Source: Thalassobaculaceae bacterium (GTDB lineage Bacteria; Pseudomonadota; Alphaproteobacteria; Thalassobaculales; Thalassobaculaceae). Taken from it: DNA of 64,000 bases. Position numbers and translations under genes: made by a program. Location: contig OZ245843.1 of the NCBI GenBank assembly GCA_965228875.1, positions 726,616 through 790,615 on the forward strand, read 5' to 3'. The notes under the pieces are model-generated. The model searched no databases. It saw only the letters and a list, made by a program, of their open reading frames with translations, and had not been told where the DNA came from. Positions 33,658 to 58,237 of the stretch are shown in pieces. Each line of letters opens with the position of its first letter. Positions within the stretch are counted from its first letter, which is position 1.

Positions 33658-34485
33658 TTGGAAATCGTCGACGCGCAGATTCATATCTGGAGAACCGGCC
33701 TGCCGAGCAATGCGGCCCATTGGCAGATCACGTCGTTCACCGCTGCCGAGGCGATCGCGCTGATGGACGCGGCCGGCGTCGACGCCGCGGTGATCCATCC
33801 GCCGAGCTGGGATCCGGGCGCCGTCGAACTGGCGTTCGATGCCGTGGCGACCTATCCAGGCCGCTTCGCCATTATCGGCACGCTCGATCTCGGCCAGCCG
33901 GAGGAGAGCGCGGCGGCGATGGAGCACTGGCGGGATAAGCCGGGCATGCTCGGCCTGCGGTGCATGTTCCTCGAGGGTGAGGACCGCCGGCGGCTGCATG
34001 CAGGGGAGCTTGAGTGGTTCTGGACCGCGGCCGAGCGGTTCGGCATTCCGATCACGACCCTGGCGACCGGATCGTTCGGGGTGCTGGGCGAGGTCGCGCG
34101 CCGGTATCCCGGCCTGCGGCTGACGATCGACCACCTGGGCGGTATGGGCGGCAACACAACCCTCAAGGACGATGCGGCCATGACCCACATGCCGGACCTG
34201 CTGGAGCTGGCGCGGCTGGACAATGTCGGGGTCAAGGTCACAGGCGCGCCGGGATACTGCAGCGGCGAATATCCTTTCGTCTCGATGCACCCCTACCTGC
34301 GCCGGATCTTCGACGCCTTCGGGCCGGACCGGACGTTCTGGGGCACGGACATCTCAAAGATGCCCTGCTCGTGGCGGCAGTGCGTGACCATGTTCACAGA
34401 GGAACTGCGCTGGCTCGCCGGCGACGATCAGGCACGGGTCATGGGAGGCGCGATCCGCGACTGGTGGGGCTGGCCCGCCGCCTGA
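33658..34485 (+). CDS. Amidohydrolase_2 family protein
   Basis: IVDAQIHIW, IDHLG, FGPDRTFWGTD; TTG start at 33658. Confidence 0.88.
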   Translation: MEIVDAQIHIWRTGLPSNAAHWQITSFTAAEAIALMDAAGVDAAVIHPPSWDPGAVELAFDAVATYPGRFAIIGTLDLGQPEESAAAMEHWRDKPGMLGLRCMFLEGEDRRRLHAGELEWFWTAAERFGIPITTLATGSFGVLGEVARRYPGLRLTIDHLGGMGGNTTLKDDAAMTHMPDLLELARLDNVGVKVTGAPGYCSGEYPFVSMHPYLRRIFDAFGPDRTFWGTDISKMPCSWRQCVTMFTEELRWLAGDDQARVMGGAIRDWWGWPAA

Positions 34486-34797
34486 GTTCCCCGCCTCGGT
34501 CCGAGCGCGTGAGCCGATGGCGGAGAGCGATCTCCGCCACGCGGTCTGGCGTGTCCGATCGCGGGTCACCTCGCCAACCCGGTCCGCTGACCGGCACCTG
34601 GCCACCCGTCCGACGAGCCAGGACCTTGCAGTAGCTCCTCAAAATCAGACTCGACGTTATGCCAACCGCATTCTCCGGGATCGGCAGCCGTGACGGTATC
34701 GCCACCATGAGGCGTCGTGACGCCGTCCGGTGGTCGGGGACCGGCATTGCCGTCCCGCGGCACGGGACCAACAAGAACGAAACCGAGGGAGGACTGC

Positions 34798-36054
34798 ATG
34801 ATCTTGAAGAGTTTGAAGGCCGCGACTGCGGCCGCTCTGTTGCTGGCGGGCGGGAGCGCGTGGGCGGCGGAGCCGTTGAAGGTGGGGGTTTTGGCAACCC
34901 TCGAAGGCACCTACACCGTGCTCGGCGAGGATGGTGTGCGCGGACTGAAGACCGCGCTGAACGTCATGGGCAACACCGGCGGCGGCCGTGAGGTCGAACT
35001 GATCATCGGGGCCACCGATGCAAGCCCGGACAGTGCCGTGCGCGCCGCTCGCAAGCTGGTCGAGCAGGACAAGGTCGATATCATCATCGGCCCGCTCTCG
35101 GGTTCCGAGGGCATCGCAATCCGCGACTACTCGAAGACCCAGCCCCAGGTGACCTTCCTGAACGGCATCTCAGGTGCGCAGGAAACCACCTACGTCACGC
35201 CGTCAGAGAACTTCTTCCGCTTCAACATGGACGGCGCCCAGTGGTCGGCCGGACTCGGCGACTACGTCTACAACGAGAAGGGCTACGAGACCGTCGCCAC
35301 GATCGGCGAGGACTACTCGTTCATCTACACCCAGGTGTTCGGCTTCGTCACCGAGTTCTGCGCCGCCGGCGGCGAGGTCACGGACCGGTTCTGGGTGCCT
35401 CTGGGGACCAAGGATTTCGGCTCGATCATCGCCTCCCTGCCGGATGACGTGGACGCGATCTATCTCGGGCTTGGCGGCGGCGACGCCGTTAACTTCCTGA
35501 ACCAGTATCAGCAGGCCGGCGGCGACGCCAACCTGATCGGCGGCACCATCATGGTCGACGGCACGGTGCTGAACTCCAAGGGCGACGCCAAGCGGGCGCT
35601 CATCGGAACGCCGTCCGCCGGACCGCAGGCCGACACCTGGGACGATCCGAAGTGGCAGGCCTACGTGAAGGCGTATCAGGACTCGTTCCCGCCGGATCAG
35701 CGTTTCCCGAGCCCGTCACTGCTGGGGACCGGTTACTACAACGCCACCACCGCGGCGTTGACCTGCATGAACGAGATCGGCGGCGACCTGTCCGACGGCC
35801 ACAAGGCGTTCCGCCAGTGCCTGACCAACCTCGAGCTCGACGCCCCCAACGGCAAGATCGTGCTGGACAAGAACCGCCAGGCGATCGGCACAAACTTCGT
35901 CTCCGAGGTGGTCGAACTGGCCGACGGGACCCTGGCCAACCAGCTGGTCTCCATCAAGGAGAACGTCAATCAGACGCTCGGAATCGACGAAGCCAGCTTC
36001 GCCGCGATCGGCCTGCCGAGCCGGGACAACCCCGAGTGCAAGGCGACCTACTAG
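34798..36054 (+). CDS. Liv-type ABC transporter substrate-binding protein
   Basis: Signal peptide, LKVGVL, ARKLVEQDKVDIIIGPLSGS, NFFRF. Confidence 0.92.
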   Translation: MILKSLKAATAAALLLAGGSAWAAEPLKVGVLATLEGTYTVLGEDGVRGLKTALNVMGNTGGGREVELIIGATDASPDSAVRAARKLVEQDKVDIIIGPLSGSEGIAIRDYSKTQPQVTFLNGISGAQETTYVTPSENFFRFNMDGAQWSAGLGDYVYNEKGYETVATIGEDYSFIYTQVFGFVTEFCAAGGEVTDRFWVPLGTKDFGSIIASLPDDVDAIYLGLGGGDAVNFLNQYQQAGGDANLIGGTIMVDGTVLNSKGDAKRALIGTPSAGPQADTWDDPKWQAYVKAYQDSFPPDQRFPSPSLLGTGYYNATTAALTCMNEIGGDLSDGHKAFRQCLTNLELDAPNGKIVLDKNRQAIGTNFVSEVVELADGTLANQLVSIKENVNQTLGIDEASFAAIGLPSRDNPECKATY

Positions 36055-36061
36055 AGCACGA

Positions 36062-36090: not shown

Positions 36091-36269
36091 ACGCCGTTCT
36101 CTAGCCCATTGAGGGTTGCGCAGACTGACACGATCGGATTTCGACGTGATCGCGGTTTGCTCGCGCGCCCTGCCCACGGCGCGGACCCGGGTCGATGCCC
36201 GGGTCCGCCACCGGCCGGACCCATGGAGCGCCGGCTCACCGACCGCTCGCGGAGCGGCGCAGGACCCTC

Positions 36270-37400
36270 ATGACCCTGATCACCTACCTCAACCGGGTGC
36301 ACTTCGCCGACGGGGTCCTCGAAGAGGCCCTGCGCTCGGAACTCGAACTGAACCGCCGTCGCCGGCCGCTGATCATCGCCGAGAGCGACCACGTCTCGGG
36401 CGCGCTGGCGGACCGGTTCTTCGCCAGTTTCCCGATCCGCACCTCGGCTGAATCCTTCGTCGAGGTGCCGGCCCTGCCGACCGAGGCGGCGGCGATCCGC
36501 ATCGCCGAACGCTACCGCGAGACGGAGCGCGACCATCTCGTCGCCTTCGGGGGCAACCGGGCGATCGACCTCGCCAAGGTGGCCCGCATCGCCATCGCCT
36601 TCGATGAGCCCATGGCGGCGCTGTCCTCGACCGAGGGCGGCACCCAGCGGATCGGCAACGGCCTCCCTGACCTCTACGCGGTACCCGGGATCTCGGGCTT
36701 CGCGTCGGCGATCAGTCACTATGCCCGGGTAAAGGTCGATGACGGCCGCCAGGTCCTGATCACCTCCCGGCACCTGATACCGACGGTTACGATCTGCGAC
36801 CCGACCCTGACTCTCGGCAGCAGCCCGGCCGACAGTTCCAGCGCCGCGTCGGGATCGATCTCGCGTGGGGTCGAATCCTACTTGTCACGGGGGTACAACC
36901 CGCCGGCCGACGGGCTGGCGCTCGACGGCCTGTCGCGGACCGCGCGGTTCCTGTCGCGCGCCGTCATGGACGACGACCTGGAGGCCCGGCGCGAAATGAT
37001 GGCGGGCAGCTTCAACAGCGCCCTGGCTCTTCAGAAAGGCGTTTGCGCGGTCCACGCCATCACCAACGCGCTGGCCTCGGTCTCGCAGGTGGTGGTCGAC
37101 CCGAGCGCGGTCGGTCGGCTGATCGTTCCGCACCTGATCCGGTACTACGGCACCCGGGTCGAGACCAAGCTGCCGGCCCTGCGGTCGGCGCTGGGGCTCG
37201 GCGTGGGTGCCGACATCTCCGACGCCATCGCCGAGCTTCTGGGCGGCCTGCCGCTCCCGAACTCCCTCGGCGAGATGGGCCTCGGAGACGCGGAGATCGC
37301 CGCCGCGTCGGCGGTCGCCAGCCAGGACCGCGCCATCGGCAACAGCCCGCACAGGCTGGACGCGGCCAGCATCGGGACGATCCTGCACGCGGTCCGGTGA
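36270..37400 (+). CDS. Iron-containing alcohol dehydrogenase family protein with degenerate metal site
   Basis: GGNRAIDLAK, ICDPTLTLG, NPPADGLALDG, ALQKG..VH. Confidence 0.82.
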   Translation: MTLITYLNRVHFADGVLEEALRSELELNRRRRPLIIAESDHVSGALADRFFASFPIRTSAESFVEVPALPTEAAAIRIAERYRETERDHLVAFGGNRAIDLAKVARIAIAFDEPMAALSSTEGGTQRIGNGLPDLYAVPGISGFASAISHYARVKVDDGRQVLITSRHLIPTVTICDPTLTLGSSPADSSSAASGSISRGVESYLSRGYNPPADGLALDGLSRTARFLSRAVMDDDLEARREMMAGSFNSALALQKGVCAVHAITNALASVSQVVVDPSAVGRLIVPHLIRYYGTRVETKLPALRSALGLGVGADISDAIAELLGGLPLPNSLGEMGLGDAEIAAASAVASQDRAIGNSPHRLDAASIGTILHAVR

Positions 37401-37553: not shown

Positions 37554-38381
37554 ATGAGCGGCGCTATTTCCGTGCATCACGGCGATTTCGGCCGTGCGGC
37601 TCTGTATGAGCTGGACCGGCCGATCATTACGCATGCCCATCGGGAAGGCCATCTGATCTTCCACATCGACGGGTGCCACGGCAACGTCATCGTCGGCGAC
37701 CGCCGGTATGCGGCCGATCGCAACCAAGCCGTCGCGGTTTCGCCATGGGAGCCACACAGCTTCGAGCCGTCGATACCGGGTGAGGCCTGCCTGTGCCTCG
37801 TACTCTACATCAAGCCGATGTGGTTCCTCGAGGCCAGCCAGTCGGCGGAGTTCGCGTTGAGCTTCGGGCGGTCGACGGTGGAAATGACCGCGAGCGTCCG
37901 ACGCTGGGCGACCCGGTTGACGTCGCTCCTTCTGGACAACCAGGCCTCGGTGCGCTTCGACGGGTTCCTGTTCGAAACCACGCGGCTCTGTTTCGACGAG
38001 TCATGGTCCGGGCTGGACACCAGCCCGTTCCTGCGCAGCCGCAGTGTCCGCTTCAACGATTATCGGGTCCGACGCGCCCTCCGTCTGATGCAGGAGGCGT
38101 TCTCGGAGGATGTGGAGATCGACCATCTGGCGCGGGATGTCGGCCTGTCGCGACCGCATTTTTACAAGCTCTTCAAGATGCAGATGGGCATTCCGCCCAA
38201 CATCTTCCTCAACACCCTACGCACCGAGCAGGCGATCGACGACCTGATGGGGACCCGGAAGTCGGTGACCGATATCGGTTTCGATCTCGGCTTCTCCTCG
38301 CAGGCGAGCTTCACCCGGTTCTTCGCCTCCCATGTCGGAATTCCGCCGACGGAATACCGTCGCGTCGCCCACTTCGCCTGA
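37554..38381 (+). CDS. AraC family transcriptional regulator
   Basis: Cupin HAHREGH; LSRPHFYKLFK...IGFDLGFSSQASFTRFF..GIPPTEYR. Confidence 0.95.
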   Translation: MSGAISVHHGDFGRAALYELDRPIITHAHREGHLIFHIDGCHGNVIVGDRRYAADRNQAVAVSPWEPHSFEPSIPGEACLCLVLYIKPMWFLEASQSAEFALSFGRSTVEMTASVRRWATRLTSLLLDNQASVRFDGFLFETTRLCFDESWSGLDTSPFLRSRSVRFNDYRVRRALRLMQEAFSEDVEIDHLARDVGLSRPHFYKLFKMQMGIPPNIFLNTLRTEQAIDDLMGTRKSVTDIGFDLGFSSQASFTRFFASHVGIPPTEYRRVAHFA

Positions 38382-38615: not shown

Positions 38616-39629
38616 ATGCGCGCGTTCGCCAGCCGCCATCCGGTCTGGTCGGTCGTCGTCGTCATCGTGGCGGCGGTGCTGCTCTGGCTGATTTTCGCCG
38701 TCTGGCCTAAGGGTCTGGTCGAACTGATCGGGCGCAAGAAGATCTTCCTGAACGCCCTGTTCAACGGCATCACCCTCGGCGGGCTCTACTTCCTGGTCGC
38801 GAGCGGCTTCACCCTGATCTTCGGGCTCATGCGGAACGTCAACCTGGCGCATGGCTCGCTGTACCTGCTGGGCGGCTATGTCGGCTACGTCTTCGCCGAG
38901 TGGACCGGGTACTGGTTGTTGGCCTTCCCGGCGGCGTTCCTGGTCGTCGGTTTCTTCGGCATCCTGCTGCAGCTCTTCGTGTTCCGCCGCATGGAGGGGC
39001 AGGACCTGCGCCAGACGCTGGTGACGATCGGCATCTCCATCGTGATGGCCGACCTGATGCTGTGGATCTGGGGCGGCGACTTCTACAACATCGGCGCGCC
39101 GAGCTGGCTCAGCGGGCCGATGGAGACGTTCCTCGTGACCGGCGTAAAGCGGTCGTCCGGCGATCTCATCTTTCTGAAATATCCGATGGTCCGGATCGTG
39201 ATCTTCGCGGCCTCCGTGGTGGTCGGCGTCGGCATGTGGCTCCTCCTGACGCGCACCCGGGTCGGCATGCTCATCCGCGCCGGGGTCGACGACCGTGAGA
39301 TGCTGTCGGCCACCGGCGCGCGTATCCAGCTGGTCTTTCTCGGCGTCTTCGCCTTTGGCGCCGGGCTGGCCGGTGTGGCCGGCGTGGTCGGCGGAACGTT
39401 CCAGTCGGTGGCGCCGGGCGAGGACATCCGCTTCCTGTTGGCGTCCCTGGTGGTGGTGATCGTCGGCGGCATGGGGTCGATCCCCGGTGCTGCGGTCGGC
39501 GCCCTGCTGATCGGCATGGCCGAGCAGTTCGGGTCCGTCTACTTCCCGACCTACGCGGTGGTCCTGACCTTCCTGATCATGGTGCTCGTCCTGGCGTTCA
39601 AGCCCCAGGGCCTGATGGGGAGGGCGTGA
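38616..39629 (+). CDS. LivH-like ABC permease
   Basis: GFTLIFGLMRNVNLAHG, VVIVGGMGSIPGA, KPQGLMG. Confidence 0.93.
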   Translation: MRAFASRHPVWSVVVVIVAAVLLWLIFAVWPKGLVELIGRKKIFLNALFNGITLGGLYFLVASGFTLIFGLMRNVNLAHGSLYLLGGYVGYVFAEWTGYWLLAFPAAFLVVGFFGILLQLFVFRRMEGQDLRQTLVTIGISIVMADLMLWIWGGDFYNIGAPSWLSGPMETFLVTGVKRSSGDLIFLKYPMVRIVIFAASVVVGVGMWLLLTRTRVGMLIRAGVDDREMLSATGARIQLVFLGVFAFGAGLAGVAGVVGGTFQSVAPGEDIRFLLASLVVVIVGGMGSIPGAAVGALLIGMAEQFGSVYFPTYAVVLTFLIMVLVLAFKPQGLMGRA

Positions 39630-40696
39630 TGGCGGTCTCCGGCGTCACCGGCGGATCGGGCTCCAGGCCGGTTCAGGCCTCGTTCTGGTGGGATCAGGCC
39701 TCGCCGGTCTACCTGGTGGTCGCTGCCGTCCTGCTGCTCATGCCGGCCTTCGCCAGCGATTTCGTCATCTACCAGCTCATGGGCTGGACCTTCATCCTCG
39801 GCATCATCGCCCTCAGCCTGACGTTCCTGGCGGGCTACGGCGGTATGGTCAGCCTGGTGCAGATGTCGGTCGCCGGCATGGCCGGGTACATGGTGGCGAT
39901 CTTCGGCGACAGCGCCATCGCCACCATCAGCCAGGGATGGCCCTGGTACGTGTCGATCCCGCTGGCGCTGATCGTCGCCGTCATCTTCGGCACCCTGGCG
40001 GGCTGGCTCGCGGTCCGCACCGAGGGCATCTACACGATCATGATCACGCTCGCGATCGCGGCGGCGTTCTTCTACTTCACCCGCCAGAACTACGTGATCT
40101 TCAACGGCTTCTCCGGATTCAACGGCGTCCTGCCGCCGCAGCTCTTCGGGGTCGACTGGCGCGGGCCCTCCGCCTTCTACTATCTGACCCTGTTCTGGGC
40201 GACCGTCAGCTACTTCGCGGTCCTGTACATCTCGCGGGCGCCCTTCGGTCTGGCGCTGCAGGGGGTGCGCGACAACCCGCGCCGGATGGCCGCGCTCGGC
40301 TTCAACGTCACGGCGCATCGGGTCGCGGCCTATGCCTTCGCGGCCCTGCTCGCCGCGGTCGGCGGCATTCTGCTGACCTGGCAGTCGGCCCAGATCTCGC
40401 CGGGTACCGCCGGTATCGGGCCGGTGATCGATGTCCTCGTGATCGCCGTGATCGGCGGTCTGCGACATCCGATCGGGCCCTTCATCGGCGCCCTGATCTA
40501 TGTGCTGCTGAAGACCTTCGCGCTCGACGCGCTGGTCGCACTCGGCCTCGGCGGCGAGCGGTTCCAACTGCTGATCGGGGTCGGTTTCCTGGCGATCGTC
40601 TTCTATTCCCCCGACGGGGTGCTCGGGCTCTGGGAACGGCTGAAGGCGTCCCGCGCCCGCGATCCGCTGCGCCAGCGGCAGGGAGGGGCGGAATGA
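39629..40696 (+). CDS. LivM-like ABC permease
   Basis: GYGGMVSL, GIYTIMITLA, GVRDNPRRMAALG, PDGVLG. Confidence 0.93.
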   Translation: MAVSGVTGGSGSRPVQASFWWDQASPVYLVVAAVLLLMPAFASDFVIYQLMGWTFILGIIALSLTFLAGYGGMVSLVQMSVAGMAGYMVAIFGDSAIATISQGWPWYVSIPLALIVAVIFGTLAGWLAVRTEGIYTIMITLAIAAAFFYFTRQNYVIFNGFSGFNGVLPPQLFGVDWRGPSAFYYLTLFWATVSYFAVLYISRAPFGLALQGVRDNPRRMAALGFNVTAHRVAAYAFAALLAAVGGILLTWQSAQISPGTAGIGPVIDVLVIAVIGGLRHPIGPFIGALIYVLLKTFALDALVALGLGGERFQLLIGVGFLAIVFYSPDGVLGLWERLKASRARDPLRQRQGGAE

Positions 40697-41496
40697 GACC
40701 CGCCGTACCCGCCTCTGCCTCGGTTTCCGAACGGCTCTCGGCCACCGGCACCGCCAACGCCCTGGAACTGCGGGGGGTGTCCAAGCTGTTCGGCGCGCTG
40801 GCCGCGCTCGAGGACATCAACCTGACGGTTCGGCCGGGCGAGCGGCGCGCCGTCCTCGGCTCCAACGGCGCCGGCAAGACCACCCTGTTCAACTGCGTGA
40901 CCGGCGACTTCCCGGCGACCACCGGGACGATCCGCTTCTTCGGCGAGGACATCTCCGCCTTTCCGGCCCACGAGCGCATCCGCCGCGGGCTGCGCCGGAC
41001 CTACCAGATCTCGCAGCTCTTCGAAGGGCTGAGCGTGGTCGACAACGTCTATCTGGCCTGCCGGGGCGTGTCCCGCGGCCGCTTCTCGTTCCTGCGGCCG
41101 CGGCGGGACGACGCGCTCATGGCGAGTGCCGACAACCTGGTGCGCGTGGTGCACCTGGAGGAGGCGCGGGATCTGAGGGTCTCCACCTTGTCCCACGGTC
41201 AGCAGCGCCAGCTGGAGATCGCCATGGCGCTTGCCGGCGCGCCGCGCTTCATCCTGTTCGACGAACCGGCCGCCGGCCTCAGCCCGACCGAACGCCGCGA
41301 TCTGGTGGAGATCCTCACCGGCCTGCCCGGACATATGGGGTTCATCGTGATCGAGCACGACATGGACGTCGCGCTGCGTGTCGCGGAGAGCGTGACGATG
41401 ATGCACAACGGCCGGGTCTTCAAGGAGGGGCGGCCGGCCGAGATCGAGGACGATCCCGAGGTTCAGGCGCTCTACCTGGGGGGTGGCGATGCCTGA
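40693..41496 (+). CDS. LivG-like ABC ATP-binding protein
   Basis: [34 protein letters not shown]. Confidence 0.94.
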
Positions 41497-48621: not shown

Positions 48622-49411
48622 AACCTGTCGGACGATCCAGGAGGCGGCCGGAGCGATGGGTACGCGCTCGCGCTTTCTCGGCGGTGGAACGCTGGTGATG
48701 CGCGCCGTTAACGACGGCGACCAGGGTTTCGACCACATCGTGCGGACAACCGATCCGGCCCTGAGGGAGGTCCGCGTCGACGGATCGCGGATCCGGATCG
48801 GCGCCGGGTGCACGATGGCCGATGTCATTGCCTCCCGCGATCTCGGGTTTCTTGCGCCGGCGGCGCGGCTCGTGGGCGGGCCGGCGGTGCGCAACATGGC
48901 GACGGTCGGCGGCAACCTGTTCGCCCCGCATCCCTATGGCGATCTGACGGCGGCGCTGCTGGCGCTCGACGGCGTGGCGCATATGGCCGACGGCCGCGAG
49001 CAGGGGATCGACGCCCTGCTCGGTGCCCGCGAGCGCCCCTCCGGACTGGTGGCGGCGGTGTCGGTGGCGCGACCGCAGGACGGGGAGTTCCGGTTCCGCA
49101 AGGTCAGCCGGGTGAAGCCGAAGGGGGTGTCCGTGATGTCGATCGCGGCGCGGCTGCCGCGCTCGGCAGGGCGGGTCTCCGGGGCCCGGGTCGCCTTCGG
49201 GGCGATGGGGCCGACACCGCTGCGCGCGCCGGCGGTGGAGCGGGCGCTGGAGGGGGCGGCGCTGGATGCGTCCGGCATCGCTGCGGCGCTGGCAGCGGTC
49301 GGGGGCGCCCTGTCGCCGGCGGACGATGCGATCGCGTCGGCCTGGTATCGCCGGGAGGTTGCGGCGGTCCATCTCGGCCGATTGCTGCTCGACGACGGGA
49401 GGGGGCGATGA
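48608..49411 (+). CDS. Molybdenum hydroxylase FAD-binding subunit
   Basis: LGGGTL, VRNMATVGGNL, ASAWYRR. Confidence 0.9.
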   Translation: MLRVETCRTIQEAAGAMGTRSRFLGGGTLVMRAVNDGDQGFDHIVRTTDPALREVRVDGSRIRIGAGCTMADVIASRDLGFLAPAARLVGGPAVRNMATVGGNLFAPHPYGDLTAALLALDGVAHMADGREQGIDALLGARERPSGLVAAVSVARPQDGEFRFRKVSRVKPKGVSVMSIAARLPRSAGRVSGARVAFGAMGPTPLRAPAVERALEGAALDASGIAAALAAVGGALSPADDAIASAWYRREVAAVHLGRLLLDDGRGR

Positions 49412-49890
49412 CCAAGGTTCCGGTGCGGTTCACCCTGAACGGGGCCGAGACCGGCGTGTTCGCCGATCCGGGCGCCAACCTGCTGGATGTGCTGCGGCGG
49501 GGCGCCGGGGACCTCTCGCCCAAATACGGCTGCGGCCAGGGCACCTGCGGCGCGTGCACGGTGCTGATCGACGGGGACGCGCATCTGTCCTGTCTCACGC
49601 TGGCGGAGTCCGCCGAGGGGCGTCGCATCGACACCACCGGCGGCCTGCGTCTCGGCGCGGATCTGCACCCGCTGCAGCGCCGGTTCATGGAAGGGTTCGC
49701 CGCCCAGTGCGGCTACTGCACACCGGGCATGCTGATGGCGGCCAAGGCCCTGCTCGACAGGGAGCCGAACCCGTCGCGCGAGCAGGTGATCGAGGCGATC
49801 TCCGGTAATCTGTGCCGGTGTACCGGATACGAGCCCATTGTCGACGCGATCCTGGCCGCCGCCGGCGATCTGCGGGGGAGGGTGGCCTGA
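49408..49890 (+). CDS. Molybdenum hydroxylase 2x[2Fe-2S] subunit
   Basis: GCGQGTCGACTV, QCGYCTPG, GNLCRCTGY. Confidence 0.95.
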   Translation: MTKVPVRFTLNGAETGVFADPGANLLDVLRRGAGDLSPKYGCGQGTCGACTVLIDGDAHLSCLTLAESAEGRRIDTTGGLRLGADLHPLQRRFMEGFAAQCGYCTPGMLMAAKALLDREPNPSREQVIEAISGNLCRCTGYEPIVDAILAAAGDLRGRVA

Positions 49891-51776
49891 TGTCTTCCGT
49901 GGAGTTCCGCAAGGACCTGTTCGCCAACGAACGGCGCGACGACCTGAACGAGATCGGCAAGCCGACGATCCGCCAGGACATCCTGGGCCACGTCACCGGC
50001 GCGACGAAGTACTACGACGACCACCTGTTCGACGGCCTGCTGCACATGCGCTGCGTGCGGTCGCCGCATCACCATGCCCGCATCCGGCATGTCGACACCT
50101 CGGCGGCGGAACGGATGGAGGGGGTGGTGCGCATCGTCCGCCCGACCGACGTGCCGCGCAACCTCAACACCCTGCTGTCGCTGATCGGTTTCGGCCGCGA
50201 CGACGAGGAACTGCTGGCGACGGCGAAGGTCGCCTATGCGGGCGAACCGGTGGTGGCCGTGATCGCGACCTCGGACCGTCTGGCGCGCGACGCGGCCGCG
50301 GCGGTGCGCGTCGACTGGGAGGTGCTGCCCCACGTGCTGGACGTCGAGGAGGCGCTCAAGCCCGACGCGCCTGTGGTCAACGACGTCTACCCGAACAACA
50401 CCTTCGACTATCACGACCGTTACGATCACCAGAAGCTGCGGTTCGGCGATGTCGAGGCCGCGTTCGCCCGGGCCGACCACATCGTCGAGGGGACCTACCA
50501 GATGTCCCCGATCGAGCAGGCGCCGATGGAGACCTGCGGCGCCATCGCCGCTCCGGAGACCAACGACCGCTTCATCTGTCACACCGCGACCCAGGCCCTG
50601 TTCTTCTCGCTCGGCACCACGGCGAAGCTGCTCGACATGGCGTCGTCGCGGCTGCACTTCGTTGGCGGCACGGTGGGCGGCGGCTTCGGCGGCAAGGTCG
50701 ACAGTCTGGTGGAGCCGATGGCGGTGCTCGGCGCGATCCTGACCGGCCGGCCGGTCAAGTTCATGTGGGACCGCCCGGAGGAGATGCAGGTCGGCGCGCC
50801 GCGCGGCGCCGAGCGCTGGCGGCTGAAGGACGGGGTGATGGCCGATGGCCGCATCGTCGCCCGCAGCCTCACCGGCTTCTTCGACGCCGGCGCCTACACC
50901 CGCCTGTCCTCCTACGCGATCATCAAGGCGACCGGTCACCTGCCGGGGCCGTACACGATCCCGAATGTCGCCTCCAACGTGTTCTGCGTGTTCACCAACC
51001 GCACCCCGGCGACCGCCATGCGTGGCTTCGGCATCACCGGCGTCGACTTCGCCATCGAGTGCCACATGGACAAGGTCGCCGAGACCATCGGCCTGAACCC
51101 GATCGACCTGCGGATCCTGAATGCCTACCGGGACGGCGACATGAAGGCGCACCGGCGCGTCGCCAAGAACACCGCGCTGATCGAGTGCTGCCAGGTGGCG
51201 GCGCAGAAGGCCGGGGTGACCCTGCGACCGGACTCGATGCAGGCCTCCAGCCTGGTCGGCGGCGGCGTCGGCGAGCGGGCGCAGATCCCGGAGACGGTGA
51301 CAGACCAGATGTCACGGATCGGCGAGCGCCGGCGGTCCGAACTGCCGACCGATCCGCTCGTGGGCGCGCACGACAAGGGCAGGGTGGCGGCCGGGGTGAT
51401 GGGGACGCCGATCGCCGCCGCCGAGCCGCAACGCGAGGACATGCGGATCGAGGCGTCCAGGGTCGGTCACGCGGTATCCGGTCCGAGCCCGGCTCCGGCA
51501 TCCCCCGCGCCCACTCCTGCGATACCGCCAGCCGCCGCCCCCGTGACCCCGCGGGCGGTGCCAACTGCAGCGCCCGCGGCTTCCATCTCCCCGGTTCCTC
51601 CGCAACCCGCACCCCCGCAGGGTACACCTGCGCAGGCTGCGCCTCCGCAACCTGCACCTCCGCAACCTGCTGCGACGCCGCCGGCGGCAGCGCCCTACCA
51701 ACCCGAGAAGCCGTTCCAGCAGGGTGTGCGCCGGCCCGGCGTCTCGCGGTTCCTGTCCGGCACGCGGAGGCGCTGA
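49890..51776 (+). CDS. Molybdopterin-binding subunit, N-terminal half, with Pro/Ala-rich tail
   Basis: VTGATKYYDD, RSPHHHARI, VGGGFGGK, DAGAY, AMRGFG. Confidence 0.92.
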   Translation: MSSVEFRKDLFANERRDDLNEIGKPTIRQDILGHVTGATKYYDDHLFDGLLHMRCVRSPHHHARIRHVDTSAAERMEGVVRIVRPTDVPRNLNTLLSLIGFGRDDEELLATAKVAYAGEPVVAVIATSDRLARDAAAAVRVDWEVLPHVLDVEEALKPDAPVVNDVYPNNTFDYHDRYDHQKLRFGDVEAAFARADHIVEGTYQMSPIEQAPMETCGAIAAPETNDRFICHTATQALFFSLGTTAKLLDMASSRLHFVGGTVGGGFGGKVDSLVEPMAVLGAILTGRPVKFMWDRPEEMQVGAPRGAERWRLKDGVMADGRIVARSLTGFFDAGAYTRLSSYAIIKATGHLPGPYTIPNVASNVFCVFTNRTPATAMRGFGITGVDFAIECHMDKVAETIGLNPIDLRILNAYRDGDMKAHRRVAKNTALIECCQVAAQKAGVTLRPDSMQASSLVGGGVGERAQIPETVTDQMSRIGERRRSELPTDPLVGAHDKGRVAAGVMGTPIAAAEPQREDMRIEASRVGHAVSGPSPAPASPAPTPAIPPAAAPVTPRAVPTAAPAASISPVPPQPAPPQGTPAQAAPPQPAPPQPAATPPAAAPYQPEKPFQQGVRRPGVSRFLSGTRRR

Positions 51777-51777
51777 G

Positions 51778-52800
51778 ATGGCCGTACACACCGGGCGCGG
51801 CTTCGCCTGCATCAACTATCCCATCGGCATGAACCTGGGCGGCGACCCGAGCCAGGCCCTGGTGCATTCGACCCCGGACGGCAAGTTCATGGTCACGCTG
51901 AGCGCCATCGATCTCGGTCAGGGCATGAAGTCTGTCACCCGCCAGATCGCCGCCGAGGCGCTCGGCGTGCCGATCGCCGACGTCTATGTCGACACCGCGG
52001 ACAGCGATACCGGGGCCCACGACATGGGCAGCTTCGCCTCGCGCGGCACCCACAGGGTCGGCAATGCGGTGATCCGCGCGGCGACCGAGGCGCGCAACCA
52101 GATGCTTGAGGCGGCGGCCGAGGAGCTTGAGGTCGATCCGGGCGACCTGGAGACAGACGGGGCGGGCAACATCCATGTGCGCGGTGCGCCGGGACGATCG
52201 ATCACGGTCGCCGAAACCGCCATCGCCGCCCAGTTCAAGCAGGGACGGACCTTGTCCGGTCGCGGCATCTTCCTGATCCCGCCGGGCGAGGCCGATCCCG
52301 AGACTGGCGAGATGACGCCGGTGACCTGCTTCGCCCACGCCGCCCTCGTGGTGTCGGTCGAGGTCGACGACGAGACCGGTGAGGTCGCCGTCACCAAGAT
52401 CGATTCCGCCTACGAGGTGGGCCGCGCGTTGAACCCGAAACTGGTGGAACAGCAGCTCATCGGTGGCGCCTGGATGGGGGTCAGCCACGCGCTGTTCGAG
52501 ACCACGGAGCCCTATTACCCGGACCGCTCCCATGGGCCGGTCGACTTCAACGGCTACCTCATGCCGGGGCCGGGTCAGATCGTCCCCCACGACATCGCCA
52601 TACTGGAGCGTCCGGCGGAGGATGCGCCGTTCGGCGGCAAGGGGCCGGGGGAGATGTGCGCCAATCCTGTCCTGCCGGCGATCGCCAACGCGGTCTACGA
52701 CGCGGTCGGCGTGCGCTGCGACAGCCTGCCGATCACGCCGGAAAAAGTGCTCCGCGGTATCCGCGCCAACGGTGGCGCCCGGCGTCGGGGCGCGCTCTGA
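51778..52800 (+). CDS. Molybdopterin-binding subunit, C-terminal half
   Basis: DLGQG, GSFASRGT, VEVDDETGEV, LNP..VEQQL.GG, GKGPGE, AIANAVYDAVG, LPITPEKVL. Confidence 0.92.
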   Translation: MAVHTGRGFACINYPIGMNLGGDPSQALVHSTPDGKFMVTLSAIDLGQGMKSVTRQIAAEALGVPIADVYVDTADSDTGAHDMGSFASRGTHRVGNAVIRAATEARNQMLEAAAEELEVDPGDLETDGAGNIHVRGAPGRSITVAETAIAAQFKQGRTLSGRGIFLIPPGEADPETGEMTPVTCFAHAALVVSVEVDDETGEVAVTKIDSAYEVGRALNPKLVEQQLIGGAWMGVSHALFETTEPYYPDRSHGPVDFNGYLMPGPGQIVPHDIAILERPAEDAPFGGKGPGEMCANPVLPAIANAVYDAVGVRCDSLPITPEKVLRGIRANGGARRRGAL

Positions 52801-53681
52801 TGGCAGTGCGGGCGACAATCGGTGGTATCGGGTCCCCCGACGCCCTGCGCTCGGCGCTGGCCGGGGCCCAGTATCTCGCGGATGACGGCCTGGCGACGGC
52901 AGCCTACCTGGCGCTGGCGCTGGGCAAGCCGCTGCTGCTGGAGGGGGCGCCGGGAGTCGGCAAGACGGAGGCGGCCAAGGCGATTGGCGCCGTGCTGTCC
53001 CGCCATGTGATCCGGCTCCAGTGCTACGAGGGGATCGACGCCGCGGCCGCGCTCTACGAGTGGAACTATCCGCGCCAGATGCTGGCGATCCGCCAGGCCG
53101 GCGAGACCTACGTCAATATCTACGCCGACGAGTACCTGCTGGAGCGTCCGCTGCTCGCCGCCCTGCGCGCGCCGGAACAGAGTCTGCTGCTGATCGACGA
53201 GATCGACCGCTCCGACCAGGAGTTCGAGGCGTTCTTGCTTGAATTTCTGTCCGATTTCTCGATCTCCATCCCGGAGACCGGGACGATCCGCGCCGGCCGC
53301 CATCCGGTCGTGGTCCTGACCTCGAACCGGACCCGCGACCTGCACGAGGCCCTGCGCCGGCGCTGCGTCTATCACTGGATCGACTATCCCGATCCCTCGC
53401 TGGAAGCCGAGATCGTCATGGCGCGGGCAAGCTCGGTGGCGCGTGCGACGGCGGAGGCGGTGGTGGCGGCCGTCGGCCTGCTGCGCCAGGAACCTCTGGT
53501 GAAGCCCCCGGGCGTCGCCGAGACGGTGGAATGGGCGGAGGCCGCGACCCTGCTTCAGGCCCAGGGAAGCCGGTGGCCCGACGCATTCCGCCGTGCCATC
53601 GGCGTGGCAATCAAGGACCAGGACGACCTCACCTACATGGCGCCACGCCTCGACAGGGTGCTGCCGGGAGAGGCGGCATGA
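52800..53681 (+). CDS. MoxR AAA+ ATPase (CoxD-like)
   Basis: LLEGAPGVGKT, RLQCYEGID, LIDEIDR, LTSNRTRDLHEALRRRC. Confidence 0.93.
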   Translation: MAVRATIGGIGSPDALRSALAGAQYLADDGLATAAYLALALGKPLLLEGAPGVGKTEAAKAIGAVLSRHVIRLQCYEGIDAAAALYEWNYPRQMLAIRQAGETYVNIYADEYLLERPLLAALRAPEQSLLLIDEIDRSDQEFEAFLLEFLSDFSISIPETGTIRAGRHPVVVLTSNRTRDLHEALRRRCVYHWIDYPDPSLEAEIVMARASSVARATAEAVVAAVGLLRQEPLVKPPGVAETVEWAEAATLLQAQGSRWPDAFRRAIGVAIKDQDDLTYMAPRLDRVLPGEAA

Positions 53682-54778
53682 CGTTACCCGACGCCGCCAA
53701 ACCGTTCGTCGCGTTCCCGTCGGTGCTGAGAGCGCACGGCTTCGCCGTCGCGCCGGATCAGACCGTCGGCTTTCTGCAGGCAATCGGTCTCCTGGGGCCG
53801 CGCGACATGACCGATATCCGCCGCGCGGCGGTCGCCATGCTGGCGGTGCCGCGCGAGCGGGAGGATGAGTTCGACGCCTTGTTCCGCGCCTTCTTCCTCG
53901 GCCAGAGTCTGCCGGCGGCGCTGCCGGATCGCGAGGAGGAGGAGGTCGAGGCGCATGAGCCGGAAGGCGGCGTGTCGGAGGTCGAGGAGGGCGAGGACAT
54001 CTCCGACACCGGCGCGGAGGCGACCGCCGCGGAGCGTCTGTCCGCCCGTGCGCCGGGTCCGGGGACGGATATGGAGGCGCTCGACGGCTTCTGCCGGGCG
54101 GTGCCGCGCAGGCTTCCGAGGCGGCGCAGCTACCGGCTGGCGCCGAGCCGTCGGCGCGGCGTGCTCGATCTGCGACGTACCCTGCGCGAGGCGGCTCGGC
54201 GGGACGGCGAGGCGACGGTCCTGAAGACCCGTCGGCGCCGCGAGCGCCAGCGGCGGGTGGTTCTTCTGATCGACATCTCCGGTTCGATGAAGGATCGCAC
54301 CGACGATCGTCTTCGCTTTGCCCACGCGCTGGTCCGGGCCGGCGAACGGGTGGAGGTGTTCACACTCGGCACGCGCCTGACCCGCATCTCCGGAGAACTG
54401 CGGGTGCGCGATCCGGACCGCGCCATGGAGCGGGTCGGCCGGCTGGTAGCGGATTTCGACGGCGGCACGCGCATCGGCGAGGCGCTGCAGGCCTTTCTCG
54501 CCGTTCCCCGATATGCCGGATTCGCCCGTGGCGCCGTCGTCCTGGTGCTGTCGGATGGTCTGGAACGGGGCGGGCCTGAGGCGATGGTGGAGGCGATCAG
54601 GCGACTGTCGCGCCTGGCCTGGCGCCTGGACTGGCTGAGCCCGCTCGCCGACGACCCGGCCTACCGGCCGCAGACGTCGGCGTTGTCGGCGGTGCTGCCC
54701 TGGCTCGACGCGCTTGGCGACGGCGCCAGCCTCGCGGCGGTCTGCCGCCACGTTCTGACTCTTGGGAGACAGCGATGA
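53678..54778 (+). CDS. VWA-domain CoxE-like protein
   Basis: DLRRTLR, MIDAS DISGSM, GGTRIG, LSDGLERG. Confidence 0.92.
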   Translation: MTLPDAAKPFVAFPSVLRAHGFAVAPDQTVGFLQAIGLLGPRDMTDIRRAAVAMLAVPREREDEFDALFRAFFLGQSLPAALPDREEEEVEAHEPEGGVSEVEEGEDISDTGAEATAAERLSARAPGPGTDMEALDGFCRAVPRRLPRRRSYRLAPSRRRGVLDLRRTLREAARRDGEATVLKTRRRRERQRRVVLLIDISGSMKDRTDDRLRFAHALVRAGERVEVFTLGTRLTRISGELRVRDPDRAMERVGRLVADFDGGTRIGEALQAFLAVPRYAGFARGAVVLVLSDGLERGGPEAMVEAIRRLSRLAWRLDWLSPLADDPAYRPQTSALSAVLPWLDALGDGASLAAVCRHVLTLGRQR

Positions 54779-55650
54779 TCGATGCGCACCATCACATCTG
54801 GCGCCAGCGGGACCTGCCCTGGCTGCAGGGGGAGGAACAGCCGCGGATTTTCGGCTCCTACGCCTCGATCATGCGCGACTACCTGATCGACGAGTTCCGC
54901 GCCGACCTGGCGGGCACCGGCATCACCCGATCGGTCTACGTCCAGGCGAACTGGCCGCCGGCCGCCTATGTCGACGAGGCGGCCTGGGTCCAGTCGGTCG
55001 CCGACGCCACGGGCTGGCCCAACGCCATCGTCGGGTATGCCGATTTCACCGTGCCGGACGTGCGCCCCCAACTCGAGGCGCTGGCTGCCTTTCCCCGGAT
55101 GCGTGGTATCCGCCAGCAGTTCCATTGGCACGAAAAGCCTCTCTATCGCTTCGCGTCGCGTCCGGATCTAGCCACGGATCCGACGGTGCAGGCCAATGTG
55201 CGCCGGCTGGCGGAGTTCGGCTGGGTGTTCGATCTTCAGGTCTTCGCCGGGCAGATGGCGGGGGCGGCCGAACTCGCGCGGGCCTGTCCGGATGTCACCT
55301 TCGTCCTGCAGCACGCCGGGATGCTCGAGGACACCTCCGACGCCGGCCGGGCGGCGTGGCGTGCCGGAATGGAGGCGCTCGCCGCCTGCCCGAACGTGAA
55401 CACCAAGCTGTCGGCTTTCGGCACGTTCATCCACCGCAACGATCCTGCCTTCATCGCCGAGATGGTGGAGGCGACCGTCGCCCTGTTCGGGGCGGAGCGC
55501 TGCCTGTTCGGCTCCAACTTCCCGATCGAGAAGATATGGACGTCATACGGCGCGCTGTTCGCGGCGTTCCGGGACGCGACGGACGGGCTGCCGGCGGGCG
55601 ATCAGGCGGCGATCTTCGGACGCACGGCGGAACGGATCTACCGGATCTGA
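54775..55650 (+). CDS. Amidohydrolase_2 family lactonase-like hydrolase
   Basis: IDAHHHIW, SVYVQA, LQHAGM, KLS, FGSNFP. Confidence 0.88.
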   Translation: MIDAHHHIWRQRDLPWLQGEEQPRIFGSYASIMRDYLIDEFRADLAGTGITRSVYVQANWPPAAYVDEAAWVQSVADATGWPNAIVGYADFTVPDVRPQLEALAAFPRMRGIRQQFHWHEKPLYRFASRPDLATDPTVQANVRRLAEFGWVFDLQVFAGQMAGAAELARACPDVTFVLQHAGMLEDTSDAGRAAWRAGMEALAACPNVNTKLSAFGTFIHRNDPAFIAEMVEATVALFGAERCLFGSNFPIEKIWTSYGALFAAFRDATDGLPAGDQAAIFGRTAERIYRI

Positions 55651-55702
55651 GCAGAACACGGGGCTGCACCCCGGACCCACGACCTACGGCAGGGAGAGAG
55701 AC

Positions 55703-56551: not shown

Positions 56552-56581
56552 GCCGCCCGTCGCGCGCTGGAGGATTCAACC

Positions 56582-58237
56582 ATGTCTCATACCCCCGTCG
56601 ATCCCCGCTTCACCGACCTGATCGATCCCTATGCTCCGGTCACCCGGCTCGGTACCGGTTACATCTTCACCGAGGGTCCGATCTGGCATCCGAGCGAGCG
56701 TCATCTGCTGTTCTCGGACATGCCGGGGGACGTGCGCCGGCGCTGGACGCCCGACGGCGCCGTGCGGGAGGTCCAGCGCCCGTCGAACAAGGGCAACGGC
56801 ATGACCTACGACGCGGATCTCAATCTGCTGGTCTGCGAGCACGCGACGTCCTCGGTGGCGCGGATCCGGCGCAACGGGACGCGGGAGGTGCTGTGCAGCC
56901 ATTTCGAGGGCAAGGAGCTGAACTCGCCCAACGATGTCTGCGTGCATTCCAGCGGACGGATCTACTTCACCGACCCGACCTACGGCCGGCTCGAGCATTT
57001 CGGCGTGCCGCGGCCGCTGCAGCAGGGGTTCCAGGGTGTCTATATGCTGGAGGCGGACCACCGGCCGGGGGACGAGCCGACGCTGGTCTCCGACCGCTAC
57101 ATGTTCCGCCAGCCGAACGGGCTCTGCTTCAGCCCGTGCGAGCGCTGGATGTGGGTGAACGACACCGAGCAGGCCAACATCCGCATGTTCGATGTCGCGG
57201 CCGACGGCAGGCTGGTGAACGGGCGGGTGTTCGCCAGCGGCATCCAGGAGACCCGACGACCGGGCGTGCCCGACGGCATGAAGGCGGACATCGACGGCAA
57301 CGTCTATGTCACCGCGCCGGGCGGCATCTGGGTGTACGCGTTCGACGGTCTCAAGCTCGGCGAGATCGAGATCCCGGAGATGGCCGCCAACCTGCACTGG
57401 GGGACCGACGACTGGCAGACGCTGTTCGTCTGCGCCTGCACCTCGCTGTATTCCGTCCGGCTGCGCAAGCGGGGACGGGTCGAACCGTTCATGGCCGCCA
57501 CGCCGAGCACGACGCGCCCGACCGCTCCGGCATCGACGGCTCCCGCCCCGACCGGGCCTGCCGCGACCGCGTCCGCCCCGACCCCACCCCCGGCTGCGGA
57601 GACCGCCGCTCCCGTGGCCGGCTCCCCGGCCATCGATCCGCGCCGCACCGTGCTGATCCTTCAGGATCTGCAGAACGACGTGATCGTCGACGGCGGCGCG
57701 TTCGCCGCCAGCGGCGCGCCGGAGCATGCCCGGTCGCAGAACGTGGTCGCCAACGCCCGCGACCTGGCGGCGGCCTGTCGCGAGGTCGGTATCCCGGTGA
57801 TCCACGTCTGGATGGTGTGCGAGCCGGGCCACCCGCGGCTCGCCCAGCACGCGCCTCTGTTTCAGGGGCTGAAGGGCGAAAACGCGCTTGTCCGCGGGAC
57901 CTGGGGCGTCCAGCCGGTCGCCGGCCTCGAACCGCAGGACGGCGACCTCGTGGTCGAGAAGATGTCGATGAGCGCCTGGGAGACAAGCCGGCTGGAAAGC
58001 TACCTGCGGCACGGCGGCGCCGACACCATCATCAACTGCGGCGCCTGGACCAATATGTCGGTGGAGCACACCGCGCGGACCGGCGCGGACAAGGGATTCA
58101 GAATCCTCGTACCCGAGGATGCGTGCTCGACGATGAACGCCGACTGGCATCGCGCATCGATCCGATACGCCATGGCCAACGTTGCCACCGTGACGACGGT
58201 TCGCGAGGTCGTCGCTTCCCTGCGCCGATCAGCTTGA
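56582..58237 (+). CDS. SMP-30/gluconolactonase fused to isochorismatase-family domain
   Basis: FTEGPIW, LNSPND, PNGLCFSP, PDGMKADIDGN; Pro/Ala/Thr linker; QDLQND..EK..TARTGADKGF..EDACS. Confidence 0.88.
   Translation: MSHTPVDPRFTDLIDPYAPVTRLGTGYIFTEGPIWHPSERHLLFSDMPGDVRRRWTPDGAVREVQRPSNKGNGMTYDADLNLLVCEHATSSVARIRRNGTREVLCSHFEGKELNSPNDVCVHSSGRIYFTDPTYGRLEHFGVPRPLQQGFQGVYMLEADHRPGDEPTLVSDRYMFRQPNGLCFSPCERWMWVNDTEQANIRMFDVAADGRLVNGRVFASGIQETRRPGVPDGMKADIDGNVYVTAPGGIWVYAFDGLKLGEIEIPEMAANLHWGTDDWQTLFVCACTSLYSVRLRKRGRVEPFMAATPSTTRPTAPASTAPAPTGPAATASAPTPPPAAETAAPVAGSPAIDPRRTVLILQDLQNDVIVDGGAFAASGAPEHARSQNVVANARDLAAACREVGIPVIHVWMVCEPGHPRLAQHAPLFQGLKGENALVRGTWGVQPVAGLEPQDGDLVVEKMSMSAWETSRLESYLRHGGADTIINCGAWTNMSVEHTARTGADKGFRILVPEDACSTMNADWHRASIRYAMANVATVTTVREVVASLRRSA

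Follow-up and report, generated by a model that had tools for sequence, protein, structure and literature searches.

A widely conserved alphaproteobacterial gene cluster combining a UPF0261-fused importer, a long flotillin and a split molybdenum hydroxylase

A run of 21 consecutive open reading frames (ORFs) on the + strand (33658-58237) was analysed in a 64,000-nucleotide (nt) stretch of contig OZ245843.1 (positions 726,616-790,615) from a Thalassobaculaceae bacterium (GCA_965228875.1), hereafter the window, in whose numbering all coordinates are given. We find that this run contains a real, widely conserved bacterial gene cluster, uncharacterised in the literature searched, in which a Liv/Urt-type importer with one ATP-binding cassette (ABC) ATPase fused to a UPF0261 (Tm-1-like) domain is encoded together with a TIM-barrel protein, a long flotillin, two SRPBCC proteins, a split molybdenum (Mo) hydroxylase and several lactonase-like or amidase-like hydrolases. 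Judged from the sequences, we consider it on balance probable that these proteins form an importer-coupled oxidation and hydrolysis system, in which a small organic acid would be taken up, phosphorylated on entry and then passed to the Mo enzyme and the hydrolases.

Reading frames in the window (G+C ~68%) were picked by third-position GC and checked with Pfam and NCBIfam, and gene starts were refined from ribosome-binding sites and upstream stops (Table 1). The protein families, positions and common strand given in a preliminary description of this DNA were borne out throughout, as was its tight packing of genes from 38616 onward, where the intergenic gaps measure -14 to +52 nt with the refined starts. 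The four genes 5' of 38616 are spaced 140-313 nt apart, and the first gene 3' of the cluster lies on the opposite strand. Both the importer set of the HAAT (Liv/Urt) family (Peripla_BP_6, two BPD_transp_2 and two ABC ATPases in Pfam) and the domain set of a xanthine-dehydrogenase-family Mo hydroxylase (every Pfam domain above cut-off) are complete. The LivF-like ATPase and the Tm-1-like part are a single fused ORF of 726 amino acids (aa); taken as two genes, they would bring the count to 22. Promoter and terminator scans gave site numbers not above those of shuffled sequence.

A scan of flotillin residues 1-300 against one genome per species returned 383 relatives, and the loci of the best 80 of these, 80-92% identical, were inspected. 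These were alphaproteobacterial, including Roseibium, Ruegeria, Silicimonas, Hoeflea, Nitratireductor, Thalassobaculum and many metagenome-assembled genomes, and the same gene order recurred at 80/80 loci, with the gene for the TIM-barrel protein (PEPhyd) likewise at 80/80. The Mo subunits were recovered at 61-70 of the 80 loci, limited by contig ends, and, with the 10-kb flank limiting, the binding protein at 31, the iron-containing alcohol dehydrogenase (Fe-ADH) at 45 and the AraC-family regulator at 61. Because this first set of loci had been selected by the flotillin, the inspection was repeated among metagenome contigs with the C-terminal half of the Mo subunit as anchor (379 relatives, best 80 kept), counting contigs with enough flank for each gene. 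The flotillin was then present in 24/24, PEPhyd in 21/21 and UPF0261 in 17/17 contigs, SRPBCC1 in 28/29 and SRPBCC2 in 31/33, the FAD subunit in 34/35, the Fe-S subunit in 41/41 and the Mo N-half in 43/43, MoxR in 57/57 and the VWA protein in 48/48, and, among the hydrolases, Amidohydro_2 in 43/44, the metallo-beta-lactamase (MBL) fold protein in 39/40 and the SGL::isochorismatase fusion in 29/30, with the exceptions on three contigs (L145, L181 and L197). The arrangement is far beyond chance. With 383 relatives of the flotillin and 379 of the Mo subunit, the epithet 'orphan' given to the cluster in the preliminary description was wrong; synteny bears out its proposal of one conserved uptake-plus-enzyme unit, and the flotillin and Tm-1/TIM-barrel genes do co-occur with Mo-hydroxylase genes elsewhere.

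Two of the three exceptional contigs, L145 and L181, carry a close Mo C-half (77-81% identity). Despite enough flank, L145 is without both SRPBCC genes, the MBL gene and the SGL fusion, and in L181 the missing genes are those for SRPBCC2 and the FAD subunit; both contigs may represent variant clusters.

The limits of the unit were defined from five complete carrier genomes. The first gene of the run (33658-34485), which had been counted as a member of the cluster, was matched in 0/5 of them and is absent near the cluster in a genome of the same family (G015). The conserved unit therefore starts further 3', and this gene is a neighbour outside it. At the other end, the MBL and SGL::isochorismatase genes lie directly 3' of the Amidohydro_2 gene in 5/5 of the complete carriers, with the MBL showing the highest identities of the three genes searched (80-92%, compared with 70-76% for the SGL fusion). 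The same-family genome G015 carries the flotillin within the same gene order, and no flotillin was found in 10/10 same-genus genomes searched. Since the flotillin is missing from all ten of the latter and the PEPhyd tree conflicts with taxonomy, horizontal spread is indicated, and we read the cluster as a strongly conserved putative operon that has spread horizontally among (mainly marine) Alphaproteobacteria. A mobile island was also considered and is not supported, the flanks holding Suf, flagellar and transport genes.

The fusion of importer ATPase and UPF0261 is a regular feature of these loci. Its ORF in the window has no internal stop, third-position GC stays at 0.88 across the junction, and the two parts occur in a single ORF at 78/78 related loci. 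A database search with the junction region found 4016 proteins among 8000 candidates scored, the best 120 of which are almost all ~720 aa long with PF00005, PF06792 and PF23189, under the public annotation 'ABC transporter permease' or 'Tm-1-like ATP-binding domain-containing protein'. The ATPase occupies aa 1-240 and the UPF0261/Tm-1-like domain aa ~320-720 (PF06792 188.6 bits, PF23189 302.3 bits), the latter passing the UPF0261 model NF002673 (600.9 bits, cut-off 520). Between them lies an ~80-aa tether that AlphaFold2 predicts to be disordered (predicted local distance difference test, pLDDT, 27-33), both flanking domains being confidently modelled. An alignment of 42 relatives revealed within the tether a conserved motif, RIYxSNPxxPTRW...ART (window 42280-42370, fusion aa ~268-296), which is found only in fusions of Mo-type clusters and not in those of the Zn-dehydrogenase-type clusters described below. 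Because it is conserved inside a linker predicted to be disordered, this stretch looks like a short docking motif. Among solved structures, the UPF0261 domain matches tomato Tm-1 (3WRY; 4e-98, 332 bits) and the bacterial protein MarK (9MPY; 9e-57, 196 bits), its GTLDTKG aligning with GTADTKF of Tm-1 and keeping the lysine that corresponds to MarK K16 and Tm-1 K20; the GTxDTK motif was present in 24 of 28 UPF0261 ORFs checked. As described in PMC12624787, MarK phosphorylates phenolic hydroxyls, converting ATP to ADP, and represents the first catalytic activity shown for UPF0261.

The importer fusion and its partners also occur without the Mo enzyme. Sampling of 401 alphaproteobacterial genomes with the TIM-barrel protein gave 33 matches, of which 32 neighbourhoods were examined, and three of these, besides the window, hold a Mo-type cluster. 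A further 10/32 contain importer genes, ATPase::UPF0261, TIM barrel, flotillin, SRPBCC and an SRPBCC::Zn-dehydrogenase fusion and no Mo hydroxylase; in these the flotillin is shorter (558-688 aa), the second SRPBCC is the partner fused to the Zn-dehydrogenase, and two of the ten continue with FAA hydrolase, alpha/beta hydrolase and Amidohydro_1 genes. Five to six neighbourhoods have UPF0261, TIM barrel and SRPBCC without flotillin, most of them without a Liv-type importer too, and the remainder hold only the UPF0261/TIM pair, in mixed contexts that gave no consistent substrate clue. The flotillin was present at 13/13 loci with the fusion compared with 0/12 complete loci with stand-alone UPF0261, while of two loci with separate LivF and UPF0261 genes one has a flotillin and the other none. 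Absence of the flotillin requires five changes on the PEPhyd tree (with moderate support, the relatives not being independent) and is therefore not confined to a single clade, which suggests that the link to the flotillin was gained or lost more than once.

The importer fusion, TIM barrel, flotillin and two SRPBCC proteins are thus a module of their own. On the strength of the presence patterns in the TIM-barrel neighbourhoods and of the flotillin-fusion counts, the SRPBCC pair goes with the UPF0261/TIM pair, the flotillin goes with the form tethered to the importer, and the oxidoreductase is exchangeable. The preliminary description had presented flotillin and Tm-1 as unusual components of a Mo-hydroxylase operon; they do co-occur with it, and since the module is found without a Mo hydroxylase, SRPBCC, flotillin and Tm-1/TIM are not accessories of that enzyme and belong instead to the importer module. 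As a separate observation, three stand-alone UPF0261/TIM pairs adjoin FGE-sulfatase genes (L102:8146-9432, L105:8045-9523 and L116:14435-15439), those in L102 and L105 also carrying DinB_2 and looking like EgtB-type sulfoxide synthases.

The flotillin is built from an N-terminal membrane helix, an SPFH domain (Band_7, PF01145, aa 41-197, 68 bits), about fourteen 44-aa coiled-coil repeats, a Flot domain (PF15975, aa 856-991, 106 bits) and a Gly-rich basic tail, both Pfam matches being above cut-off. The 44-residue periodicity runs across aa 231-860 in diverged repeats that are visible at the protein level only, and no long DNA repeat was found in the gene by Tandem Repeats Finder. A ribosome-binding site, GAAGGAGG, lies 5' of the gene. 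Size and position are well conserved: the ORF measures 879-1168 aa in 75/76 loci, the median gaps are 20 nt to PEPhyd and 0 nt to SRPBCC1, and the latter gap is at most 60 nt in 75/76 loci. The hydrophobic N-terminal helix is followed by YRRSTKE, so that, by the positive-inside rule, the bulk of the protein would be cytoplasmic. The protein scored 35.4 bits on the FloT equivalog NF058507 (cut-off 700). A defence system was considered and rejected, the flotillin being without a PADLOC match.

The TIM-barrel protein is 62% identical to the structural-genomics protein Mll9387 (2P10; match at 2e-114), and the next structural neighbours of its AlphaFold2 model are TrpA (tryptophan synthase alpha), BX1 and triosephosphate isomerase (E ~1e-7 to 1e-8, TM score ~0.6). 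Members of the PEP-mutase superfamily rank lower. These neighbours suit an enzyme that binds a phosphorylated substrate, and the label 'PEP hydrolase' is weakly supported by the model. Both SRPBCC proteins matched only PF10604 in Pfam, with no CoxG-family match. In locus L120 they are fused to each other, the order there (L120:4862-7807) being UPF0261, a 304-aa double SRPBCC protein and the TIM barrel.

The two halves of the Mo subunit are separate ORFs in 62/62 loci, and the position of the junction varies. The N-half in the window ends in a ~150-aa Pro/Ala-rich low-complexity tail (51300-51776) just 5' of the C-half gene. Its best solved relative is the 425-aa half subunit of a split nicotinate dehydrogenase (3HRD_A; 2.2e-56, 195 bits), followed by 4-hydroxybenzoyl-CoA reductase and quinoline oxidoreductase. 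NCBIfam matches included no curated nicotinate-dehydrogenase model, and the CoxL equivalog CO_dehy_Mo_lg scored 160 bits, far below its 991-bit cut-off, in a cluster that does have a VWA_CoxE protein. On the uptake side, all five urea-transporter components UrtA-E scored under their equivalog cut-offs (UrtA 54 vs 493 bits, UrtD 213 vs 304 bits), UrtB and UrtC being the best NCBIfam models for the two permeases. The best solved relative of the binding protein is 4ZPJ (1.5e-39), followed by 4EY3, 4EVQ, 4EVS and 4F06, which we take to be binders of benzoate derivatives.

From these features we propose that a small organic acid with a hydroxyl or oxo group enters through the binding protein and importer, a hydroxylated N-heteroaromatic or phenolic acid being the favoured candidate. 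The tethered UPF0261 domain would phosphorylate the hydroxyl or oxo group with ATP on entry, as MarK does with phenols, and the phosphate-binding TIM barrel would act on the phospho-intermediate. The SRPBCC proteins would bind the intermediate and hand it over, a role supported by the fusion of the second SRPBCC to a dehydrogenase in sister clusters, to the Mo enzyme for hydroxylation or oxidation. The lactonase-like and amidase-like enzymes and the Fe-ADH would then complete the conversion by lactone or amide hydrolysis and an alcohol or aldehyde step. The flotillin, its SPFH domain and coiled coil facing the cytoplasm, would hold this machinery together at the importer, and scaffolding of the importer complex is its most likely role. 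The complete degradation route for a cyclic compound put forward in the preliminary description stays conjectural, and no ring-cleaving oxygenase is present in the cluster.

A bolder version of the mechanism, which we think unlikely, would have the flotillin form an SPFH-type cage or barrel that encloses the importer on the cytoplasmic side of the membrane, with UPF0261 phosphorylating the incoming cargo in an ABC-driven group translocation. The TIM barrel, SRPBCC proteins and Mo enzyme would then sit inside or at the enclosure and retain the intermediate, and the tether motif would dock the hydroxylase or the cage. If so, a reactive or membrane-permeant intermediate would never escape, and this flotillin would be the first in bacteria to have a defined client encoded in its own operon, and would be part of a new kind of membrane-bound metabolic compartment.

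Several points weigh against the importer-coupled mechanism. The synteny counts come from related, non-independent genomes and contigs (the best 80 of 383 and of 379). The only NCBIfam equivalog cut-off to be passed is that of the UPF0261 model, which is nameless, and as no other was reached, the enzymes can be given functions at the level of families only. The cytoplasmic orientation of the flotillin is read solely from the positive-inside rule. The UPF0261 domain is nearer to tomato Tm-1 (332 bits) than to MarK (196 bits), and in the account given in PMC12624787 Tm-1 binds ATP and has no known enzymatic role; MarK, as described there, functions without a TIM-barrel or SRPBCC partner, so that the roles given above to the TIM barrel and SRPBCC proteins are guesses. 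Stand-alone UPF0261/TIM pairs occur in very mixed contexts, including sugar-type ABC systems. Finally, a lactone or sugar acid as substrate would suit the lactonase-like set and the Fe-ADH as well as a heterocycle would. This last point makes for a serious, if rather unlikely, rival, in which the same operon would serve a lactone, sugar acid or similar polyhydroxy compound that the kinase traps as a phosphate ester, the TIM barrel and lactonases acting on the phospho-lactone or phospho-acid and the Mo enzyme being an aldehyde or lactol oxidoreductase. It is serious because three hydrolases resemble aldonolactonases. The Amidohydro_2 protein is nearest to the L-fucono-1,5-lactonase model (110 bits, cut-off 400) and to 4DLF (7.5e-17); the SGL::isochorismatase fusion has 3E5Z and 3KL2 as best solved relatives, its SGL part being nearest to the gluconolactonases 3E5Z and 3DR2; and the MBL protein is nearest to AiiA-type lactonases (AiiA 68 bits, 4-pyridoxolactonase 67 bits, both under cut-off). 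The best NCBIfam models of the Fe-ADH (4-hydroxybutyrate dehydrogenase, 244 bits, cut-off 500) and of the Fe-S subunit (glyceraldehyde dehydrogenase gamma) point the same way, as do the FAA-hydrolase and Zn-dehydrogenase genes in clusters without the Mo enzyme, the sugar-type ABC systems and GFO/IDH/MocA oxidoreductases beside some stand-alone pairs, and the sugar-phosphate enzymes among the TrpA/TIM structural neighbours of the TIM barrel. However, all the lactonase matches are far under family cut-offs, HAAT importers and the family of the binding protein are not typical sugar systems, and the binding protein's solved relatives after 4ZPJ are those that we presume to bind benzoate derivatives. 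SRPBCC pockets usually hold hydrophobic ligands, the isochorismatase-type hydrolase suggests an amide, and the nearest relatives of the Mo subunit are enzymes of nicotinate, 4-hydroxybenzoyl-CoA and quinoline, all of which counts against this rival.

A quite improbable alternative is that UPF0261 serves the importer ATPase as a regulatory or sensing appendage, in the manner of the C-terminal regulatory domains found on other ABC importer ATPases. It would bind ATP or a metabolite and gate uptake rather than phosphorylate cargo, with the flotillin stabilising the transporter in the membrane and the enzymes encoded 3' forming an ordinary soluble pathway. The domain sits on a predicted-disordered tether, as regulatory domains often do, and its closest solved relative, Tm-1, is the one without known catalysis; moreover, wild-type MarK is reported in PMC12624787 to be a very poor kinase until an E16K change. 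Yet the lysine that made MarK active is already held by the UPF0261 domain of the window. The TIM barrel and SRPBCC pair accompany UPF0261 even with no importer nearby, which fits an enzyme set better, and 10 loci have a dehydrogenase fused to the second SRPBCC. Least probable is a known pathway in another guise, with nicotinate, picolinate, 3-hydroxypyridine, homarine, purine and CO oxidation as the candidates. In its favour, the best solved match and the split form of the large subunit recall the nicotinate dehydrogenase of Eubacterium barkeri, the CoxE-type and MoxR-type factors recall cox clusters, and the separate SRPBCC with a kinase-like requirement recalls the HpdA system. Against this, the NCBIfam equivalogs for xanthine, CO, 4-hydroxybenzoyl-CoA and aldehyde enzymes all stay under their cut-offs, and the SRPBCC proteins match PF10604, with no CoxG-family match. 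Homarine catabolism was rejected, the hom operon being flavin-based, with genes of flavin, peptidase and aldehyde-dehydrogenase types and none of the families found here. HpdA uses a pair of the PEP-utilising/PPDK family, and the text of its preprint mentions no flotillin or ABC fusion (bioRxiv 10.1101/2020.01.08.898148). Full-text literature searches, with subscription journals and supplements outside their scope, found no paper on this cluster or arrangement or joining these parts, in agreement with the earlier statement that it could be assigned to no described pathway.

Table 1 Genes of the analysed run, with coordinates in the 64,000-nt window and family assignments
Position (nt)	Strand	Product	Pfam match and remarks
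33658-34485	+	Amidohydro_2 protein	PF04909, 77 bits; TTG start with ribosome-binding site
34798-36054	+	Periplasmic substrate-binding protein of HAAT (Liv/Urt-type) importer	Peripla_BP_6, 176 bits; ATG at 34798, then signal-peptide-like N-terminus
36195-37400	+	Iron-containing alcohol dehydrogenase family (Fe-ADH)	Fe-ADH + ADH_Fe_C
37554-38381	+	AraC-family regulator	HTH_18 + HTH_AraC
38616-39629	+	Permease, LivH/UrtB-like	BPD_transp_2; 4-nt overlap with next gene
39626-40696	+	Permease, LivM/UrtC-like	BPD_transp_2
40693-41496	+	First ABC ATPase, LivG/UrtD-like	ABC_tran
41483-43663	+	LivF/UrtE-like ATPase::UPF0261 fusion, 726 aa	ABC_tran + PF06792 + PF23189
43667-44494	+	TIM barrel, PEP_hydrolase-like (Mll9387-like; PEPhyd)	PF09370, 436 bits
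44518-47721	+	Flotillin, 1067 aa	Band_7 + Flot
47722-48159	+	SRPBCC1, 145 aa	PF10604 (Polyketide_cyc2), 93 bits
48163-48621	+	SRPBCC2, 152 aa	PF10604 (Polyketide_cyc2), 78 bits
48608-49411	+	Mo-hydroxylase FAD subunit	FAD_binding_5/CO_deh_flav_C
49408-49890	+	Mo-hydroxylase 2Fe-2S subunit	Fer2/Fer2_2
49890-51776	+	Mo-hydroxylase Mo N-half	Ald_Xan_dh_C/MoCoBD_1
51778-52800	+	Mo-hydroxylase Mo C-half	MoCoBD_2
52800-53681	+	MoxR-type AAA ATPase	AAA/AAA_5; presumed cofactor maturation
53678-54778	+	CoxE-type VWA protein	VWA_CoxE, 158 bits; presumed cofactor maturation
54775-55650	+	Amidohydro_2 protein, lactonase-like	152 bits
55703-56551	+	MBL-fold hydrolase, AiiA/4-pyridoxolactonase-like	Lactamase_B
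56582-58237	+	SGL (gluconolactonase-like beta-propeller)::isochorismatase-like cysteine hydrolase fusion	SGL 142 bits, Isochorismatase 154 bits

Outside the run, two overlapping ORFs of 527 and 725 aa lie directly 3' of the cluster on the - strand (58277-59860 and 59853-62030), with a G+C of 0.63 compared with ~0.69 and no Pfam, NCBIfam or PADLOC match. A 236-aa ORF on the - strand at 32479-33189 has a borderline match to Peptidase_C70, an AvrRpt2-like papain-fold protease (E 2.9e-4, 21 bits, cut-off 19), and nothing in NCBIfam or PADLOC. The 817-aa ORF at 28348-30801 (+) gave weak matches to SARP/AfsR-like and TPR-type regulators, all far under cut-off. Ordinary chromosomal context is provided by 101-1923 and 5112-10882, which encode a flagellar or type III secretion system-type ATPase with FliJ and a complete Suf set (SufB, SufC, SufD, SufS and others).

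UPF0261/Tm-1 proteins with their TIM-barrel partner occur widely across all domains of life, and MarK (2025) is the sole catalytic activity shown for them. Fusion to an importer ATPase gives UPF0261 a fixed physical address and fixed partners. Bacterial flotillins, in turn, are usually seen as general membrane organisers; the one described here is tied to a single operon and tracks the importer fusion. As the cluster is found in hundreds of alphaproteobacterial species and many metagenome contigs, its substrate is probably a compound common in the environment, whose identification would close a gap in organic-matter turnover. Several carriers are in culture (Roseibium, Ruegeria, Hoeflea, Nitratireductor, Oceaniglobus, Thiosulfatihalobacter and Pikeienuella), which makes the hypothesis directly testable.

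In tomato Tm-1 and plant Tm-1-like proteins (3WRV-3WRY; PMC5028733) the two halves are one protein that inhibits a viral replicase, whereas in the window both halves are adjacent with a 3-nt gap, the UPF0261 half on a transporter ATPase and the TIM barrel separate. MarK (Saro_1862 of Novosphingobium aromaticivorans) shares the two-part UPF0261 fold family, the lysine of GTxDTK and a catabolic operon context with the fusion domain; unlike the latter it is described in PMC12624787 as a free homodimer, followed by a biotin carboxylase set, and the description there includes no ABC fusion, TIM barrel, SRPBCC or flotillin. The nicotinate dehydrogenase NdhFSLM of E. barkeri consists, like the Mo enzyme of the window, of four polypeptides with the Mo subunit split at the same place, but similarity is moderate and the Pro/Ala-rich tail belongs to the N-half of the window. 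The E. barkeri enzyme is selenium-dependent, and the remaining genes of nicotinate fermentation in that organism do not appear to be present in the cluster.

The flotillin shares Band_7/SPFH, an N-terminal membrane anchor, a long coiled coil and the Flot domain with FloT of Bacillus, flotillin-1/2 and HflK/C. FloT is ~500 aa long (477 positions in its NCBIfam model), and the flotillin of the window reaches about twice that length because of its ~fourteen 44-aa repeats. The gene is embedded in a catabolic operon instead of being paired with an NfeD gene. SPFH proteins form barrels or domes attached to the membrane, among them the flotillin-1/2 barrel (bioRxiv 10.1101/2024.05.09.593390). A further known system is 3-hydroxypyridine degradation by HpdA1-4 with orf9/orf10 in Ensifer adhaerens HP1, which, as far as the preprint describes it (bioRxiv 10.1101/2020.01.08.898148), combines a Mo hydroxylase with a separate SRPBCC subunit, one that affects localisation, and requires a kinase-like pair, encoded next to it, that uses ATP and phosphoenolpyruvate (PEP). 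The SRPBCC product is termed a carbon monoxide dehydrogenase protein there and is presumed to be of CoxG type, in contrast to the PF10604 proteins of the window. In the position of the kinase-like pair the window has the UPF0261/PF09370 pair, none of the 21 ORFs of the run matching the PEP-utilising/PPDK families in Pfam. HpdA is the nearest precedent for a mechanism in which a kinase-like pair and an SRPBCC protein serve a Mo hydroxylase.

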